From a phage: a stretch of 64,000 bases of DNA. Every line of letters starts with the position of its first letter. Positions within the stretch are counted from its first letter, which is position 1. Shown here in pieces: positions 54,315 through 62,758 of the stretch. The notes beneath the pieces are model-generated. The model was not told the origin of the DNA, did no database searches, and was given only the letters and a program-made list of their open reading frames with translations. The position numbers were made by a program, and so were the translations under genes. Location of the stretch: sequence record OZ346151.1; one strand, 5' to 3'.

Positions 54315-54608
54315 TCAAGACTTTTTAGTCTTTCTTGGAGAGCTTTTTGTTGATCTTTTCCTTTTGTGGTAGATTCCAAGTGCAGCGTTTTCTTGGGCGC
54401 ACGTTTTAACAGTTCTCAGAGAAGAACTTTCAGCTTTAGGCAGGTTTAACTCCCACCAACCGAGCCAGTAAAGTTCTGATTCCGACAGCTGCTCAGATTC
54501 AGCCTTCCGATACAATGATTGCATACCTCTAATGATGTCGTCCAGAGGTGTATCGAATACAAAAGCTGTCTTATCGAATTTCTCTTTTACAGGTCTCTTA
54601 GCCATCAA
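54315..54608 (-). CDS. hypothetical protein with basic C-terminus
   Basis: Strand-consistent ORF. Confidence 0.5.
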   Translation of the reverse strand: MMAKRPVKEKFDKTAFVFDTPLDDIIRGMQSLYRKAESEQLSESELYWLGWWELNLPKAESSSLRTVKTCAQENAALGIYHKRKRSTKSSPRKTKKS

Positions 54609-55044
54609 GGTAACCCTCTATCCACGAAAAGTCAGTCTTCCATTCTGGAACTTTACTAAGCTCACGCCACTCTGCAAAGCAGTCTCGGTAATACGCCTCT
54701 GCCATACTCTTGGTGATCTTATTCACCTTAGCCAACTGATTAACTGCCTGAGCATACTTTCCACGGATATTTGCTAACCCAGGATGCACCGATGTGTGAC
54801 AATCCGGGCACAGTGCTATCAGTCCGACAAGCCGGATCACTCCCTCTTCGAAAGTGTAAAGTTCATGACACTCCACTGGGTGTTTGCTGCCTTTACCGCC
54901 GCACACCTCACAAGTGTAGTTGGCTTCTCTATAGCACTTCTTACGTATCTTATCCCACTCACTCTTCTTCACAGCGTTTCGGAGGTTATTATACCAAGCT
55001 GTTTCTGGGATCAGTTGCACAATAAGCCTGCGTTCAGACTTCAT
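54598..55044 (-). CDS. hypothetical zinc-binding protein
   Basis: CEVCG...CHE...CPDCH; start set at internal Met to avoid overlap. Confidence 0.45.
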   Translation of the reverse strand: MKSERRLIVQLIPETAWYNNLRNAVKKSEWDKIRKKCYREANYTCEVCGGKGSKHPVECHELYTFEEGVIRLVGLIALCPDCHTSVHPGLANIRGKYAQAVNQLAKVNKITKSMAEAYYRDCFAEWRELSKVPEWKTDFSWIEGYLDG

Positions 55045-55072
55045 TAAACGTCCGTCTTCCACGTGTTCTCCC

Positions 55073-55279
55073 TCATTCAAAGAAATGGGTGCGAGGGCAG
55101 GAACCTGCCTCACCTTGTTTCACAAGCTCGTAGAGCTCACCTTGACTTGTCTCATAAAGGCAAATACGTTTACCATTGTCCCGATATACATCGACAAGAT
55201 ACGCTGTTTCACCTGCAAACACGACACCACAGGCCAGACATGCTACCATGAACAAAATTGCCAATAGAAAATCTTTCAT
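55073..55279 (-). CDS. small lipoprotein (signal peptide with lipobox)
   Basis: N-terminus MKDFLLAILFMVACLAC with L-A-C lipobox; immediately downstream of endolysin. Confidence 0.55.
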   Translation of the reverse strand: MKDFLLAILFMVACLACGVVFAGETAYLVDVYRDNGKRICLYETSQGELYELVKQGEAGSCPRTHFFE

Positions 55280-55936: not shown

Positions 55937-57220
55937 TCATTCAAGCACCTCCCAAGTGTCTGGGTTAACATTTCGGACGCAGATACCGACAGGGAATTGG
56001 TAATTGTTGTCTTCTGTCCTTGCTTGGTATTTGAAGGTGACAAACTTGCCGATCATTTCCTGCATCCTGTCATAGCTACGCTCCTCGTGCGTGCCTTTCA
56101 TCTTCATTTTAACAACAACACCTTCCTTGTCAACACAGATAAGAACACCTTCATCATTCTTATCTTTCTCAACGTCAATAACTTTCACCTCTGCGTCGTT
56201 GAACTTTTTCCATTTCAATGCTTCAGATGTTCGCTGACCATACTCATATTTACCGCAGAAATTACGCATGATAGTACCTTCATATCCTTCGGACATGAAT
56301 ATACCAACAGATTCTTCGCAATGATCAACTGTGTACGCAAGCTCTGCGTCAACAACCTTGATATGATCAAGCATCAGAGTGGTAACGGTATCCTCTGCAT
56401 CCATAAGATCCTTGCAGCGTCCAGACTCTGTTTCTGGATCCCACCACACCTTGTCGCTAGGAATATCAAAAATGTGATACTCCAGATCGTAGCTACAGTA
56501 TCCACCGTAACGCAAATCATCACGAACAGGCTCAACATCGACAGGAATATCTACCTTGTTGAAGTTTTTGTATGTTGATAAGCCTGCCTTAATTGCTGCA
56601 TGACGGCGTTTTTTATCTGCCTCATAGTCTTTATCGATCTCGGCCTGAATCTCTTCCTGTGTGCGCCACCGTTTAGCAAGAGACACTATTTTCTGCAAAG
56701 GAAGACCATGAATGTATAGTTCCCCATCAAGTTGTTTAATCCCAGTGGTAGAATGGAAAGAACGAAGTTGCTCTAAAAGCTTTCCTTGAATAGGGTAGGA
56801 CTTATTACCACGGGAAATAAATTTAGGCTCACCATTTTGGAAAACAACAAGCAGACGAAGGCCATCTAACTTACGCAAGATCCAGCAAGGTAATTTAAGT
56901 GCCTTGCCACGCTTCAGGTAGTCATGCACCAGCATAGGTAAAAGATCAACACCCTGCTCGCAATCTTCCATGTTTTCAACATACCCCAGACGGACTTGTT
57001 TTTCCCACTTGCTGATAGCCTCAAGCTCGGCCTGTTGCTCAGCTGTAGTCTCGTTGGCACGACCTACGTTTTTAGGTGTACATACCGTCTCTTTGTACTG
57101 CAATTTACCGTCAAGCTTGCCAAACTCTACGATAACCTTTTCGCCATCAGTGAATACTTTCCACTGTTGGTAGCTGCCATCTTTGTTCAGTGCGTACAGT
57201 GTTGTTTTGATTTGATGCAT
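55937..57220 (-). CDS. ATP-dependent DNA ligase
   Basis: Nucleotidyltransferase motif I RKLDGLR; 427 aa. Confidence 0.75.
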   Translation of the reverse strand: MHQIKTTLYALNKDGSYQQWKVFTDGEKVIVEFGKLDGKLQYKETVCTPKNVGRANETTAEQQAELEAISKWEKQVRLGYVENMEDCEQGVDLLPMLVHDYLKRGKALKLPCWILRKLDGLRLLVVFQNGEPKFISRGNKSYPIQGKLLEQLRSFHSTTGIKQLDGELYIHGLPLQKIVSLAKRWRTQEEIQAEIDKDYEADKKRRHAAIKAGLSTYKNFNKVDIPVDVEPVRDDLRYGGYCSYDLEYHIFDIPSDKVWWDPETESGRCKDLMDAEDTVTTLMLDHIKVVDAELAYTVDHCEESVGIFMSEGYEGTIMRNFCGKYEYGQRTSEALKWKKFNDAEVKVIDVEKDKNDEGVLICVDKEGVVVKMKMKGTHEERSYDRMQEMIGKFVTFKYQARTEDNNYQFPVGICVRNVNPDTWEVLE

Positions 57221-57784: not shown

Positions 57785-57846
57785 AACTAACTACCTCACT
57801 GCATACTTTCCATAATAAGTAAAGCCGGGTAATCCCGGCTATGTTG

Positions 57847-58560
57847 TTAAATATACTCTGTTACATCCTTGAAGCTCGAAGGCTTCATAATCTTACCTTT
57901 ACTGTCAAGGAATATAATAACTTTATTACCGTTGTAGAACTCCTCTTTAGCAACGAAACCTTCGTAGCGACCACCAAAACGACGCTCAAGATCTTCAATC
58001 TCTAACTCTATGAGCAATTCAGTAGACATATCTGCACTGGCACCGTGAGAATATCGTAGATGGTTGATCCGTGCAAACTTGCTGTCATTAGATTTGAGAA
58101 CCTTCCGCATCATCCCACACACATCGCCGCGAAGCTGGAACAGCAAAGCTGTTGACAACTCCGCTAAGCGGTAAGCTGACGCTCTTTGCTTGGATGTGTT
58201 TTTCGCAGCGATCAGTGTATCATAGAACTCACCGATCTTGAACTTAAGACCTCGTGGATTATCAAACAGGTTTGACCACTTTTCGTGATTATCATTAACA
58301 AGATAAGCGGCATAACTTGTGACAACGTGAAGATCGCAGGCCTCTTTTAGCAGGTGATCTCCACCATCACCTTTCTCCAGCTCTTCCAAAACCTCATTGA
58401 ACTCTTCCTCAATGAAGCTAAGCTGTAATTCGAATGGTGTGTATGATTTTTTCACTTTAGCTGCCACACGGTTCCAGTTTTCCACCCAGTTGGCAGACCA
58501 AAGGTAGTTTTCAGGCTGAGACAGTTTTTCCAGGTTGTCGATCAGTTTAGTATTCAGCAT
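57847..58560 (-). CDS. hypothetical protein, possible MazG-like nucleotide pyrophosphohydrolase
   Basis: FIEEEFNEVLEELEKGD...EACD weakly resembles MazG EExxE...E..D motif. Confidence 0.35.
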   Translation of the reverse strand: MLNTKLIDNLEKLSQPENYLWSANWVENWNRVAAKVKKSYTPFELQLSFIEEEFNEVLEELEKGDGGDHLLKEACDLHVVTSYAAYLVNDNHEKWSNLFDNPRGLKFKIGEFYDTLIAAKNTSKQRASAYRLAELSTALLFQLRGDVCGMMRKVLKSNDSKFARINHLRYSHGASADMSTELLIELEIEDLERRFGGRYEGFVAKEEFYNGNKVIIFLDSKGKIMKPSSFKDVTEYI

Positions 58561-58573
58561 TAAAGGTCTCCTT

Positions 58574-59335
58574 TTAAAGTTCCATAAAGTTTTCTACAGT
58601 TTCAATAAATGCTTTATCAGAGAAAGCGTCAACAGCACCGTTAAACCATACAGGGATCCCGCGATCCTCATATTGATAAAGGTCGCTACGTGAAATGCCA
58701 CTCCCATCTGCACTCTGCGAGTCATACTTGTTTACAATCAGCAGTTTTGTGCCTTTACAAGTAGCAGGAAACAATTCCCAGTTAAAATTAATAACTGTGT
58801 TAGAACAACCTACTAGGATCACCATATCATTGCTTGTGAGAGATGTCAACAGGTCATACATGTCTGTATACTTAGGAGCAACCTCACCGAAGAACACTAC
58901 ATTGGGCTTAACCCAGGTATACTTGCCTGTATCTACCTCCGTGTATCCGATATTTTTAATTACATCATTACCTTCAGCATCTTCGTAGGTGATTTCAGGC
59001 AAATACCCGTGGACATGTAAAATATCTTCATGTTTTACACCAGCACGCTCCAGCAAATCATCTACATTGGTGGTAAGGTTGATCACACGACCAGACCAGC
59101 GGGAATACCACTCAGCGATCCGAAGATGTGCAAGGTTAGGATCAACACTGCCCAGAGCTACACGACGTGCATTGTAAAAGTCATGCACCTTATAGTAGTT
59201 CTTGGCAAAGGTGTGGATGTTGCACACCTCATCGATGCTGAAATTCTCCCACATTGCAGTGCTACCAGATCGGAAAGTGGGAATACCAGATTCAGCGCTC
59301 AAACCAGCACCGGAGATAATAATCAGTCGTCGCAT
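58574..59335 (-). CDS. Sir2-family (sirtuin-like) NAD-dependent protein, no zinc-ribbon module
   Basis: SGAGLSAESGIPTFRS, TTNVDDLLERAG and HG motifs; no CxxC pairs. Confidence 0.7.
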   Translation of the reverse strand: MRRLIIISGAGLSAESGIPTFRSGSTAMWENFSIDEVCNIHTFAKNYYKVHDFYNARRVALGSVDPNLAHLRIAEWYSRWSGRVINLTTNVDDLLERAGVKHEDILHVHGYLPEITYEDAEGNDVIKNIGYTEVDTGKYTWVKPNVVFFGEVAPKYTDMYDLLTSLTSNDMVILVGCSNTVINFNWELFPATCKGTKLLIVNKYDSQSADGSGISRSDLYQYEDRGIPVWFNGAVDAFSDKAFIETVENFMEL

Positions 59336-59343
59336 AAGTGTCC

Positions 59344-59694
59344 TCAGTAGATGTTTTGTTTAATCTCTATTCCAAACTTCTTGAATGAGTCAGCAGCAAG
59401 CATAAATTTACGAGCTGCCGATGGATTAGAAGTATGCACGAAAATAATCACGTTGTCAATAAGTGGTGGCTTTCCGAATACAAGTTTCTCCTCTAGCGCA
59501 GAGAAGCAGTCGTACCCTTCAAGCACTTCACCTAGATCATTGTCAAAATACCACTCAGATACGCGTCTGTAGAGCTTTCTCTTATCATTAAGAAAATCCA
59601 TAAACTCAGAAGAATTCTTTAGCCACAGAGCGTCTGGGAGTCCATAATCTGACGGATCTCTAAAATCATCAAGCCACACAATCCACTTCTTCAT
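59344..59694 (-). CDS. hypothetical protein
   Basis: Strand-consistent ORF. Confidence 0.5.
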   Translation of the reverse strand: MKKWIVWLDDFRDPSDYGLPDALWLKNSSEFMDFLNDKRKLYRRVSEWYFDNDLGEVLEGYDCFSALEEKLVFGKPPLIDNVIIFVHTSNPSAARKFMLAADSFKKFGIEIKQNIY

Positions 59695-60626
59695 TGCATA
59701 TAGTCCTCGTTGTGGAAATAGTAGTCCAGTATCTCACGACGCTCCTGCTCTAATAAGCAATTCCACACATCTTCTGTATAGTTGCTACGAATAAATTTTA
59801 CCATACCGTAAAACTCTTCGTCAACACGTTTAAAGATATCATCATCCCAAATCTTCCAAGCTTTACCCCTCATTACTGCCTTCCGTGCCAGATAGTATGG
59901 AGACTTGATCTTCAGCTGCAGATCATAAGGGTAGTAAGGCTTACGAATCATATACCCTTCACCTCTTGTTTCTGCAGCTAATTCTTTTGCATAGCTGAAC
60001 GGAATTTCACGCACAGTGTTAGGACGTTTTGCACCAAGGTATTTGGCAATCCCATCTAAAGCTGCTTCTGGTAGCATTATTCCAGAATCATTATATCTGC
60101 AACCTATCAAATATGCGCCATGGTCTTCTTGAACAATATGCGGATCTGAAGGGTGACAAATTTCAAACATGAATGTCATGTTTTCATTGCCCATAACCTT
60201 CTTGATAAGATCTAAATTACCACATTGCTCTTGGATGGTTTCCTTTGCAAGGTTACAATATGGAGAATCAAGAGACCCGGTTGTTGAGAACAATAGGTCA
60301 CCTTTATGAGATGATACCACACCAAGGAATCCGTTCTTTTTCTCTACCGCAGTCACAAGCTTATTGTCAGGCAGGTTGGTGGAGTTTTCTCCCAAGTTAA
60401 ACACTTTTGTGAAGGGCCATGCCACAACATTTCCTTCATTACCTACAACAATGCCTCGGCACTCCAGTAAACGAGGGGACAAATGCCATAAATTGTTGTA
60501 AAATACTTTTCTAGCATATTTATAGATCTTTAACCCGAGATCTGGGTAATACCTACTGGTTACAAGACCTTTGTCAACTAGGTCGTCTGCATTAAAATAC
60601 TTCATTATATGTTCCTCATTTGTCAT
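59691..60626 (-). CDS. RNA ligase (T4 Rnl1-like)
   Basis: LLECRGIVVG resembles T4 Rnl1 ALECRGIMF; motif I EKKNGF (KxDG/KxNG); divergent from pnk. Confidence 0.7.
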   Translation of the reverse strand: MTNEEHIMKYFNADDLVDKGLVTSRYYPDLGLKIYKYARKVFYNNLWHLSPRLLECRGIVVGNEGNVVAWPFTKVFNLGENSTNLPDNKLVTAVEKKNGFLGVVSSHKGDLLFSTTGSLDSPYCNLAKETIQEQCGNLDLIKKVMGNENMTFMFEICHPSDPHIVQEDHGAYLIGCRYNDSGIMLPEAALDGIAKYLGAKRPNTVREIPFSYAKELAAETRGEGYMIRKPYYPYDLQLKIKSPYYLARKAVMRGKAWKIWDDDIFKRVDEEFYGMVKFIRSNYTEDVWNCLLEQERREILDYYFHNEDYMQ

Positions 60627-60726: not shown

Positions 60727-61137
60727 ATGTCTAAAATGCTATATATCGTGCGTGGTCTACCAGGGTCTGGCAAATCAACACTGGCAAATGAGCTATCTTT
60801 AGAGGGTCTGTATCCACATTTTGAGAACGACATGTTCTGGTATGACGATGACGGCAATTACAACTGGGATGCAAGTAAAGTAACACTCGCAGCAAAATGG
60901 TGCAAAGATAACGTAGAAGATATGATGCGTATGGGATACGACCGTATCGTGGTAAGTAATACGTTTACAAAAGAAAAACATGTGCAGGAATATGTTGACA
61001 TGGCAATCACTCACGGGTATAGTTATACCGTGATCGTGGTTGAAAACCGCCACGGTAATAAAAGCATTCATGATGTTCCAGACAAGGTTGTGGATCGTAT
61101 GGAACGCCAGCTTAAAAACTGCATTAAACTTAAATGA
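60727..61137 (+). CDS. polynucleotide 5'-kinase (P-loop kinase, T4 Pnk kinase-domain-like)
   Basis: SD GGAGGG; Walker A GLPGSGKST; ~136 aa; next to RNA ligase and phosphatase. Confidence 0.65.
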   Translation: MSKMLYIVRGLPGSGKSTLANELSLEGLYPHFENDMFWYDDDGNYNWDASKVTLAAKWCKDNVEDMMRMGYDRIVVSNTFTKEKHVQEYVDMAITHGYSYTVIVVENRHGNKSIHDVPDKVVDRMERQLKNCIKLK

Positions 61138-61144
61138 GGAATGT

Positions 61145-61699
61145 ATGAAATACTTTGTAACAAGCGACACACACTTTCTCCACCAGCGGGTCATGGAGTT
61201 TGATTCATGTCAAAAACACAGATCTCAGTATGATCACAATCTTGACAGTATGAATGCAGGAATCATCGCCGAGTGGAACTCTGTTGTGTCACCTGCAGAC
61301 ACTGTGTTCCACTTGGGAGATATTGCGTGCACTAATGATAAGAATATCAACAACTTACTTCCAGATATTCTAAATATGTTGAACGGACATATTATTCTTG
61401 TTCGTGGCAACCATGACACAAGGACGACTGTCAGAATTATGAAAGAGTTCGGTCATGAGGTTGTAGATTATTACGAGCTTCGCCACAACAAGAATTTGAT
61501 CTGTATGAGCCATTACCAGTTTGCAAAGTGGAACAGAAAGCCTCACGGATCAGTCCAACTGTTCGGTCATGCTCACGGAACCACACAACAGTTGTTTGGC
61601 AGGCAGCTTGATGTCGGTTGGGATGTGTGGGGGAGACTCTTACCATTAGAAGAGGCATACCGTATTGCAATGAGTTTTGATATTGACAGCAGGGAGTAA
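61145..61699 (+). CDS. calcineurin-like metallophosphoesterase (putative 2',3'/3'-phosphatase)
   Basis: SD GAGGA; motifs SDTHF, GDIAC, GNHD, HAHG. Confidence 0.65.
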   Translation: MKYFVTSDTHFLHQRVMEFDSCQKHRSQYDHNLDSMNAGIIAEWNSVVSPADTVFHLGDIACTNDKNINNLLPDILNMLNGHIILVRGNHDTRTTVRIMKEFGHEVVDYYELRHNKNLICMSHYQFAKWNRKPHGSVQLFGHAHGTTQQLFGRQLDVGWDVWGRLLPLEEAYRIAMSFDIDSRE

Positions 61700-62097: not shown

Positions 62098-62173
62098 ACC
62101 AGTAAAAACTTAAATATCTGTACTATAAGGATTCGTATGTTTTATGTTCGCCATGGAACGGATACTATTAACT

Positions 62174-62252
62174 GTCCGTGATACGGACACTACTGTCCGT
62201 CACGCGGACACATCTGCCCGTAATACGGACACTAACTGTCCGTGATACGGAC
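62174..62252. repeat. four phased 15-bp palindromes (iteron/operator array)
   Basis: GTCCGTGATACGGAC (62174), GTCCGTCACGCGGAC (62195), GCCCGTAATACGGAC (62216), GTCCGTGATACGGAC (62238); spacing 21-22 bp. Confidence 0.75.
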
Positions 62253-62261
62253 ACATAAAGA

Positions 62262-62385
62262 ATATAACTAAAATAACTAAATAATAAAAAATAAAAGATC
62301 TAGTACTTATGGTACTAAGTACATATACTTAACTTATGTAGAATATACTAGATCCTAAGTACCATGTTTTAAATTTATTACTTAC
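62262..62385. repeat. AT-rich region with large imperfect palindrome
   Basis: AGATCTAGTACTTATGGTACTAAGTAC...TACTAGATCCTAAGTACCATG inverted symmetry. Confidence 0.55.
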
Positions 62386-62660
62386 TATGGGCAGTGTCGG
62401 CCCTTCATTGGCACTCGCCTACGAGGGGGCGAGATGCCGGGCCTCCTTGGCGCACACAATAACAGAAGTTCATACATGCAGGTCTGTTAACATGTGTGGG
62501 AGCGAAGCGATAGCGCAGGCCAAAGGCCGAGCACTGATGTGGACCACCGACGAAAGCTTGCCAGCGCCGTAAGGAGTCGGTTGAGAGTCTCCCGCGCGAG
62601 CTTGGATGAAGTTTATGTGTGGAAACTGACAAGAAGGCCCCTAAATCGCTCCACAGCTAT
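62386..62660 (+). ncRNA. candidate structured non-coding RNA (GC-rich, ORF-poor)
   Basis: Visibly GC-richer than flanks; several short stems (e.g. CTCGCC...GGCGAG); no RBS-supported ORF; strand undetermined. Confidence 0.3.
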
Positions 62661-62758
62661 ATAAACTATACCAGGTAATGCAATCGCACCAGTTTGATAG
62701 AAAAGCTCGTTACAAAGCGATACAGTGAGTTTTTCTATAACTTGAAGAGGAGGCAGCT

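Follow-up and report, generated by a model that had tools for sequence, protein, structure and literature searches.

A zinc-free CobB/SIRT5-like sirtuin encoded among the RNA-repair genes of an rV5-like Escherichia phage

The window analysed here, a 64,000-nucleotide stretch of phage DNA (sequence record OZ346151.1), encodes a Sir2 protein amid a cluster of RNA-repair genes. As judged by its sequence and predicted structure, this protein is a divergent sirtuin of class III (CobB/SIRT5-like) descent, in which the zinc ribbon has degenerated in place to a Cys-free β module. For its function we tentatively favour NAD+-dependent protein deacylation, to which the sequence and the structural model lead us to assign a probability of roughly 0.4. 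Sirtuins are among the most studied NAD+-consuming enzymes, and the phage Sir2 clade is large, extending over more than 1,000 sequenced phages that include the model phage T5 and the BASEL phages. The gene, its zinc loss (2016), and its RNA-repair neighbourhood together with the hypothesis of a Tpt1-like mechanism (2022) have all been published, and the finding is therefore already known. What our analysis adds is that the zinc ribbon appears to have degenerated in place, with a Gln-to-Thr change in the TQNID motif that co-varies with zinc loss; that a cyclic-phosphate-processing receiver (cREC) protein accompanies Sir2 in four lineages and is encoded by T5 (T5.084) while T5 is without an RNA ligase; and that the substrate tunnel was apparently not re-tooled.

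Results

The original prediction described a phage-encoded sirtuin whose Rossmann and catalytic motifs are intact, and every motif that it quoted was located in the protein. GAGLSAESGIPTFRS spans residues 9-23 (window positions 59267-59311), TTNVDDLLERAG spans residues 88-99 (59039-59074) and includes TTNVD at residues 88-92 (59039-59053), and the catalytic HG lies at residues 109-110 (59006-59011). The Pfam SIR2 profile (PF02146) is matched almost end to end (positions 1-178 of 180) with E = 6.9e-28 and a score of 98.2 bits, the cut-off being 24, and PHROG 2162 ('Sir2') matches at E = 1.5e-108, so the assignment is not a chance match. NCBIfam gave seven hits, each of them a CobB-type or Sir2-family model for NAD-dependent deacylases or deacetylases, and a PDB sequence search ranked E. 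coli CobB and human SIRT5 best (E about 1e-21, identity about 26%). An AlphaFold2 model built from 52 homologues (mean predicted local distance difference test, pLDDT, 89.8; predicted template-modelling score 0.89) has the Rossmann and small domain fold of solved sirtuins. Its best Foldseek match is CobB (1s5p; template-modelling score 0.77/0.85, E 1e-17), and 282 PDB matches were obtained at E <= 0.001, with deacylase sirtuins making up 50 of the 50 among the matches listed.

Conservation was assessed in alignments of 52-120 homologues, the set of 120 spanning 46-93% identity. Invariant throughout are G9-A10-G11, S16, F21, R22, Y54, R57, N90, D92, H109-G110, F148, F149 and E151, so that the catalytic His and Asn (H109, N90) are both present, and S13 and G150 are kept in 98% and 94% of homologues, respectively. 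In total, 46 positions are invariant and a further 34 nearly so, in homologues that come from many phage families and reach down to about 46% identity. Both residues of the Y-x-x-R motif, Y54 and R57, are 100% conserved in the 120 homologues. In CobB and SIRT5, this motif forms the pocket that binds the acyl carboxylate. These two enzymes share with phage Sir2 the GAGxS, FR, Y-x-x-R, N-x-D, HG and FGE motifs, a similar length, a small β-module in the same place and an acidic isoelectric point (pI), whereas phage Sir2 differs from them in having no zinc ligands, in reading TTNVD for TQNID and in residing in a phage RNA-repair operon.

Absence of the four-Cys zinc site, the second claim of the original prediction, is borne out, as residues 111-146 hold 0 Cys and 0 His and no intact zinc module of a conventional CobB was overlooked. 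The whole protein has only three Cys (38, 177 and 193), and no conserved Cys column is found at residues 113-142 across the 120 homologues. The module itself has not been deleted, measuring 36 residues versus 39 in CobB, and in the AlphaFold model it is a confidently predicted sheet of three strands (110-118, 124-128 and 142-146). Two viral sirtuins on IMG/VR contigs of 112 kb and 519 kb (L064:6001-6762 and L066:5974-6711) retain CxxC...CxxC together with TQN(I/V)D, and a central (D/N)(I/V)GY motif is common to these zinc-bearing modules and to the Cys-free ones. The preserved length and the motif shared with zinc-bearing viral relatives argue that the zinc ribbon degenerated in place. To place this change in a wider family, 1.84 billion cluster representatives (50%-identity clusters) were searched exhaustively with a profile, which yielded 7,322 relatives, and the best 147 usable ones were analysed. 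Fewer than three Cys were present in the module of 51 of these 147 and at least three in 96, and among the top-ranked representatives 22 of 25 had fewer than three. The TQNID Gln and the zinc site were both absent in 43 representatives and both present in 82, with only Gln absent in 14 and only zinc absent in 8, which gives an odds ratio of 31 (Fisher p = 5e-17) that is not corrected for phylogeny and is descriptive only. In this descriptive sense, zinc loss co-varies in the aligned sequences with the Gln-to-Thr change. A literature search for what the TQNID glutamine does, and for the SIRT5 Q140L mutant, returned nothing usable.

The positions that line the tunnel and cleft (F21, H109, F148/149, E151 and V181) are equally conserved in Cys-free and zinc-bearing relatives, which indicates that the substrate tunnel has not been re-tooled. 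We also asked if the G-[TS]-S-x-x-V-x-P loop, which holds the peptide, had disappeared along with zinc, and rejected this, as the V-x-P loop does not differ between the two groups and about one in three members of either has its Pro. Proteins of the clade are acidic (median pI 5.1; 34 D+E vs 22 K+R in the query) and, compared with CobB, show no gain of basic residues. Because the RNA ligase and the kinase of the phage are acidic too, global charge is only a weak indicator of RNA binding. Domain fusions in long Sir2 relatives were tried as a functional clue and proved uninformative, comprising only WG repeats, leucine-rich repeats and tandem SIR2. As a separate observation, the rV5 lineage alone carries a 9-14-residue insertion, KYDSQSADGSGISR, at about residues 203-216 (window about 58688-58729), which occurs in about 14% of homologues and for which the model predicts disorder (pLDDT under 50 at residues 206-211).

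By its sequence, the window is from an rV5-like Vequintavirus myovirus of E. coli, the 2.9 kb around Sir2 being 99.9% identical to Escherichia phages isim, nimi, nomine and CarlMeissner (BASEL Bas48). Annotations of the gene in these phages read 'putative Sir2-like protein' or 'sirtuin domain NAD-dependent deacetylase' (Bas48_0215 in Bas48). By tblastn, 1,012 phage records contain a Sir2 homologue, with at least 80% of the protein covered in 877, and where annotation exists among those listed it is mostly 'Sir2-like'. Homologues occur in T5, Mydo-like, phi92-like, KVP40-like and jumbo phages, and identity amounts to 100% for a protein of phage I29, 93% for an rV5 variant (rV5_ev168) and 57% for T5.102. 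Sir2 is thus a member of PHROG 2162 beside T5.102 and the V5/rV5, Mydo, phi92-like and Bas48_0215 proteins, with the same Cys-free module and TTNVD; nothing essential sets it apart from them, and the rV5 lineage adds only its disordered insertion.

Table 1. Sir2, its degenerate zinc module and neighbouring features of the window
Feature	Position	Strand	Remarks
Sir2 gene	58574..59335	-	253 aa, ATG start; zinc-free, class III-like sirtuin; key residues G9-A-G-x-S13, F21/R22, Y54-x-x-R57, T88-T-N-V-D92, H109-G110, F148-F-G-E151
Degenerate zinc-ribbon module	58898..59005	-	aa 111-146, between HG and FGE loop; without Cys or His
Rnl1-family RNA ligase	59691..60626	-	PF09511 E 1e-14; phrog_562 E 1.9e-65; first gene of unit
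cREC protein	59344..59694	-	116 aa; PF20274 E 9.1e-14; phrog_1479
MazG-like nucleotide pyrophosphohydrolase	57847..58560	-	237 aa; phrog_671 E 5.7e-22; last gene of unit
GC-rich hairpin	57823..57840		7 pairs, 6 G-C; 6 nt downstream of MazG-like gene; terminator-like on both strands
P-loop polynucleotide-kinase-like protein	60727..61137	+	AAA_33 E 6.1e-11; phrog_2071; phrog_505 polynucleotide kinase E 1.3e-10
Calcineurin-like metallophosphoesterase	61145..61699	+	PF12850/PF00149; phrog_547 E 9.8e-52
ATP-dependent DNA ligase	55937-57220	-	further downstream of unit

The RNA-repair genes that the original prediction had noticed beside Sir2 could be identified by profile matches as a ligase, cREC, a kinase and a phosphoesterase (Table 1). 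The ligase stop overlaps the cREC start (ATGA), Sir2 starts 8 nt past the cREC stop with a GAGGA ribosome-binding site 6 nt 5' of its ATG, and the MazG-like gene starts 13 nt past the Sir2 stop with an AAGGAG ribosome-binding site of its own. In the Bas48 annotation, the RNA ligase begins 18 nt further in. The hairpin behind the MazG-like gene comes from a consensus scan only and has a weak T tail; it probably ends a four-gene unit, rnl-cREC-sir2-mazG-like. The kinase-like and phosphoesterase genes are transcribed divergently from this unit, and all five partners (ligase, cREC, kinase, MazG-like protein and phosphoesterase) lie within 2.4 kb of Sir2. The metallophosphoesterase is a candidate end-healing enzyme for 2',3'-cyclic-phosphate or 3'-phosphate ends. 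The MazG-like protein has no Pfam hit; for this neighbourhood's gene the MazG superfamily has been named (PMC9503650). Neither it nor the RNA ligase has a PDB relative detectable by sequence, and an attempt to assign the ligase as T4-Rnl1-like or as Trl1-like (the latter requires a 2'-PO4) ended there. No macrodomain was found among the Pfam and PHROG matches of the Sir2 neighbours, and no defence-type partner (HerA, SLOG, pAgo or TIR) is present near Sir2. A promoter scan gave 20 matches, compared with 17.2 +/- 5.2 in shuffled sequence; as these are no commoner than in shuffled sequence, we claim no promoter.

We surveyed gene context in 64 viral contigs that encode Sir2 relatives, with a flank of +/-6 kb. 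Of these, one is of rV5 type and has the full set of five partners. Seven Mydo-type loci (L025-L028, L033, L061 and L044, all encoding cREC) carry the ligase, cREC, kinase, phosphoesterase and MazG-like gene, with one further truncated locus partial, and three carry the Mydo-type set without a detectable cREC, again with one more truncated locus partial. The largest group is T5-type (28 loci), in which a HAD_SAK_2 'Swiss-army-knife RNA repair' phosphatase lies 0.8-1.3 kb downstream; in T5 itself this is T5.105 (PF18143, E 4e-20). Only a phosphoesterase or a kinase is nearby in three loci. At least one RNA-end-processing partner is thus found within 6 kb in 44 of the 64 viral loci and none in 20, and the neighbours in these 20 are NrdD, PhoH, NAMPT/NAPRTase, DUF7275/7277 or proteins without a Pfam match. 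The neighbours of KVP40-like and phi92-like Sir2 mostly have no Pfam match at all, and iterated profiles with relaxed thresholds revealed no hidden cREC, HAD_SAK, kinase or ligase near them.

Two phages outside the rV5 and Mydo groups extend the association with cREC. In the jumbo phage Turkey3 (PQ471515, L071:4965-8395), Sir2 is followed by an overlapping Nudt16-like Nudix gene, cREC (E 1.9e-23), a small open reading frame (ORF) and a PIN-PhoH fusion; the Nudix, cREC and PIN-PhoH proteins are 'hypothetical' in the record. In T5, T5.084 (L068:42745-43062, minus strand, AY543070), annotated 'hypothetical protein, similar to KVP40.0304', is a cREC protein (PF20274, E 3.4e-15). T5 therefore encodes cREC, HAD_SAK, Sir2 and two calcineurin-type phosphatases as well as an NAD-dependent DNA ligase, and it is without an RNA ligase, as a search of the whole T5 genome gave no Rnl1 homologue (best tblastn E = 1.6). 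Across the loci, cREC accompanies Sir2 in four lineages and a pyrophosphohydrolase does so in three, while a ligase is not always present. Two further features of these loci were seen. At T5-type loci, a tandem DUF7415 pair (e.g. T5.106 and T5.107; L002:7651-8481) always follows the HAD_SAK phosphatase, and some Sir2 relatives have NAPRTase/NAMPT-family genes (2 members, one with NAMPT_N) or AAA_28 P-loop proteins (3 members) nearby. The NAPRTase/NAMPT neighbours hint at a link to NAD salvage in lineages without RNA-repair neighbours.

Discussion

Our analysis points, with the reservation already expressed, to Sir2 as a catalytically competent, NAD+-dependent protein deacylase. In such a reaction, the acyl oxygen of an acyl-lysine would attack C1' of the nicotinamide ribose and nicotinamide would leave, with N90, D92 and F21 positioning NAD+; H109 would then activate the ribose 2'-OH, and the intermediate would be resolved to free lysine and O-acyl-ADP-ribose. 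Negatively charged acyl groups are likely to be accepted because of Y54 and R57, and succinyl and malonyl would thus be probable substrates besides acetyl. As targets one would expect proteins of host or phage that are required in an active state during infection. CobB is classically known for freeing the catalytic lysine of acetyl-CoA synthetase (Acs), an adenylate-forming enzyme, from its acyl group, and by analogy the adenylate-forming enzymes encoded nearby are candidate targets whose catalytic lysine could be blocked by acylation. As a speculative bridge between deacylation and RNA repair, the CobB-like enzyme, whose gene has an RNA ligase on one side and a DNA ligase on the other, might keep the nucleophilic lysines of both ligases free. 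The adjoining MazG-like pyrophosphohydrolase and cREC may dispose of the ADP-ribose-derived by-product; in jumbo phages the MazG-like slot is occupied by a Nudix enzyme.

Several lines of evidence from sequence and model are consistent with deacylation, namely the fold, the nearest relatives, the catalytic residues, the shielding Phe, the Y-x-x-R motif and the unaltered lysine tunnel. The acidic character of the clade without basic gain, the persistence of Sir2 in the ligase-free T5 and the 20 of 64 loci without an RNA-end-processing gene would also fit. The same reading was reached from modelling of the KVP40/phiSt2 homologue by Skliros et al. in 2016, who built that Sir2/CobB protein on CobB 1S5P, found the zinc ligands absent from the finger domain, argued that salt bridges stabilise this domain, and noted that the catalytic His and the lysine tunnel are retained (PMC5107563). 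They proposed host enzymes such as acetyl-CoA synthetase as targets and listed T5 as a homologue (PMC5107563). The KVP40/phiSt2 protein differs from ours in being about 46% identical over three quarters of the protein and in having TANVS for TTNVD, and the KVP40-like nt-1 locus, unlike the window, is without RNA-repair neighbours.

A number of observations speak against a deacylase. The zinc ligands are absent from the Sir2 module, whereas E. coli CobB has four Cys at the same place, and the canonical sirtuin zinc site is integral to the small domain, which contributes half of the substrate cleft. Thr replaces the near-universal Gln of TQNID in 120 of 120 close homologues (TTNVD). Sir2 falls far short of every curated NCBIfam CobB cut-off (at best 122.6 bits vs 243 for NF001753; 104 vs 320 for NF040867). 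The gene is embedded, through overlapping or 8-13 nt junctions, in the RNA ligase-cREC-Sir2-MazG unit, and partners that process RNA ends or cyclic phosphates recur in the rV5, Mydo, T5 and jumbo lineages, for which ordinary deacylation offers no obvious explanation. In our literature search, no member of the phage clade turned up with a biochemical or genetic characterisation.

Some of these observations are accommodated by a second reading, the main rival and only somewhat less probable than deacylation, that Sir2 is a sirtuin-fold analogue of Tpt1/KptA, that is, an NAD+-dependent RNA 2'-phosphotransferase acting in phage tRNA or mRNA repair. Iyer et al. (2022) delineated a distinct viral sirtuin clade with a type 2 'phage V5/Mydo' neighbourhood, in which the sirtuin is found with a T4-like RNA ligase, cREC, a nucleotide kinase, MazG and sometimes a calcineurin-like phosphoesterase, with no macrodomain, and, taking phage V5 as the prototype, suggested a KptA/Tpt1-like role for the sirtuin in the removal of RNA 2'-phosphates (PMC9503650). 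The window falls under this type 2 definition. In this scheme, a host ribonuclease would cut tRNA or mRNA to give 2',3'-cyclic phosphate and 5'-OH ends, the kinase together with cREC or the metallophosphoesterase would heal these ends with a 2'-phosphate left behind, and Rnl1 would seal them; the loss of the zinc ribbon and the Gln-to-Thr change, which hint at an altered substrate, would be adaptations that open the cleft to RNA. The tight rnl-cREC-sir2-mazG-like unit with a divergent kinase and phosphoesterase alongside argues for this proposal, as do the RNA-end and cyclic-phosphate partners that recur in Mydo, T5 and jumbo loci, with at least one in 44 of the 64 loci. A cyclic-phosphate product would moreover supply a substrate for cREC, a protein family defined in 2021 (PMC7824862), and the invariant Y-x-x-R could hold a phosphate.

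The chemistry is also formally parallel, since in Tpt1 a phosphate oxyanion attacks C1'' of NAD+ and the 2''-OH then attacks phosphorus (PMC11417386), and fungal Trl1-type repair leaves a 2'-phosphate (PMC10946426). Tpt1/KptA and phage Sir2 would be alike by analogy in consuming NAD+, releasing nicotinamide, following a two-step course that includes attack by the 2''-OH, and residing in an RNA-ligase genomic context. They differ in that fold and sequence are unrelated, and in that Tpt1 enzymes bind RNA whereas the Sir2 clade is acidic. Pfam and fold searches with Sir2 return sirtuins only and give no sign of Tpt1/KptA homology.

Other features make RNA a less convincing substrate. No basic patch was gained and the lysine tunnel is unchanged, both of which count weakly against RNA; an internal RNA 2'-phosphate, about 3 Å from the backbone, would be hard to bring to the buried C1'. 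Repair by a kinase, a phosphoesterase and a T4-type Rnl1 can proceed without a 2'-phosphate intermediate. T5 has no RNA ligase able to make a 2'-phosphate junction, and the KVP40-like and phi92-like loci are without RNA-repair neighbours. The rV5 and Mydo contexts may share descent and would then not be independent, and no RNA-repair domain fusions were found among Sir2 relatives.

It is improbable that Sir2 acts instead as an ADP-ribosyltransferase on a host or phage protein or a small molecule, or as an NAD+ glycohydrolase (NADase), in host takeover or counter-defence. In favour of such a role, the zinc site is lost and TQNID is altered, NAMPT/NAPRTase genes stand beside relatives in two viral loci, and the pyrophosphohydrolase that is a frequent neighbour could process ADP-ribose. 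Bacterial defence SIR2 domains are NADases, and the original prediction had inferred from the missing zinc site that the phage protein would probably be an NADase or ADP-ribosyltransferase like them. This inference found no support, as the comparison of profiles that it had called for separates SIR2 (E 6.9e-28) from SIR2_2 (PF13289; 13.2 bits vs a cut-off of 24.5, E = 0.097, below threshold) and the best matches in sequence and structure are all deacylases of CobB, SIRT5, Sir2Af or SIRT2 type. PADLOC defence models gave no match to Sir2, the sole hit (E 0.011) being to an unrelated model, and no HerA, SLOG, pAgo or TIR partner accompanies the gene, so that we reject a defence-type NADase of the ThsA/DSR kind. 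The defence NADases (ThsA, DSR1/2, Sir2-HerA and SIR2-APAZ) share with phage Sir2 a zinc-free SIR2 domain in phage-host conflict, yet belong to a different subfamily and are host-encoded, either multi-domain or partnered, and without the acyl-lysine tunnel signature. F21, the residue by which deacylases protect the intermediate from hydrolysis, is invariant, and destruction of NAD+ would hurt the phage's own NAD-dependent steps, such as the NAD-dependent DNA ligase of T5. Nothing was found in support of the further idea that the protein pre-empts NAD-depleting defences.

Some sirtuins are dedicated to ADP-ribosyl transfer, and SirTM likewise puts the sirtuin fold to a use other than deacylation; these class M enzymes have three defining features, QG instead of the catalytic HG, a zinc site that is kept and an operonic or fused macrodomain, and in SirTM the Q-to-H change abolishes all activity (PMC4518038). 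Phage Sir2 has none of the three, with an invariant HG at 109-110, no zinc site and no macrodomain neighbour, and class M is accordingly rejected. Finally, that Sir2 is what remains of a host cobB captured by the phage, decaying or no longer catalytic, is hardly credible, for although its zinc ligands are lost and its score falls below every curated CobB cut-off, the 46 invariant and 34 nearly invariant positions include every catalytic residue, the predicted model is confident and compact, and the operons are tightly packed.

The distinction between deacylation and Tpt1-like activity is of some consequence. If Sir2 is a deacylase, virulent phages would reset host or phage protein acylation, and a zinc ribbon regarded as 'essential' would be dispensable. 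Were it a Tpt1 analogue instead, it would be the first sirtuin-fold enzyme to act on nucleic acid, a new chemistry for the fold, and it would supply the missing step of phage RNA repair against tRNA-cleaving defences, yielding a self-contained pathway of kinase, cREC/phosphoesterase, Rnl1 and Sir2. As Sir2 is a small soluble protein from tractable phages, simple assays can tell the readings apart.

Some minor features of the surrounding sequence were also recorded. No tRNA genes or Rfam matches were detected in the window. In Bas48, six tRNA genes (Arg, Tyr, Lys, Thr, Ile and Pro; L070:15814-16626) lie about 4 kb from the RNA-repair cassette; they map from about 0.6 kb to 1.4 kb past the 3' end of the window, which stops before them. 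Window positions 62098-62758 are ORF-poor and contain a GC island (59.5% at 62400-62599 vs about 40% around it); this segment has no tRNA or Rfam match, its RNA fold is not stabler than that of shuffled sequence (z = -0.61), and Bas48 annotates only tiny ORFs there. At 54598-55113 on the minus strand, a 171-aa ORF carries CxxC and CPDCH motifs, and its Bas48 equivalent, annotated 'putative homing endonuclease', is placed between an endolysin and a C5-cytosine methyltransferase.

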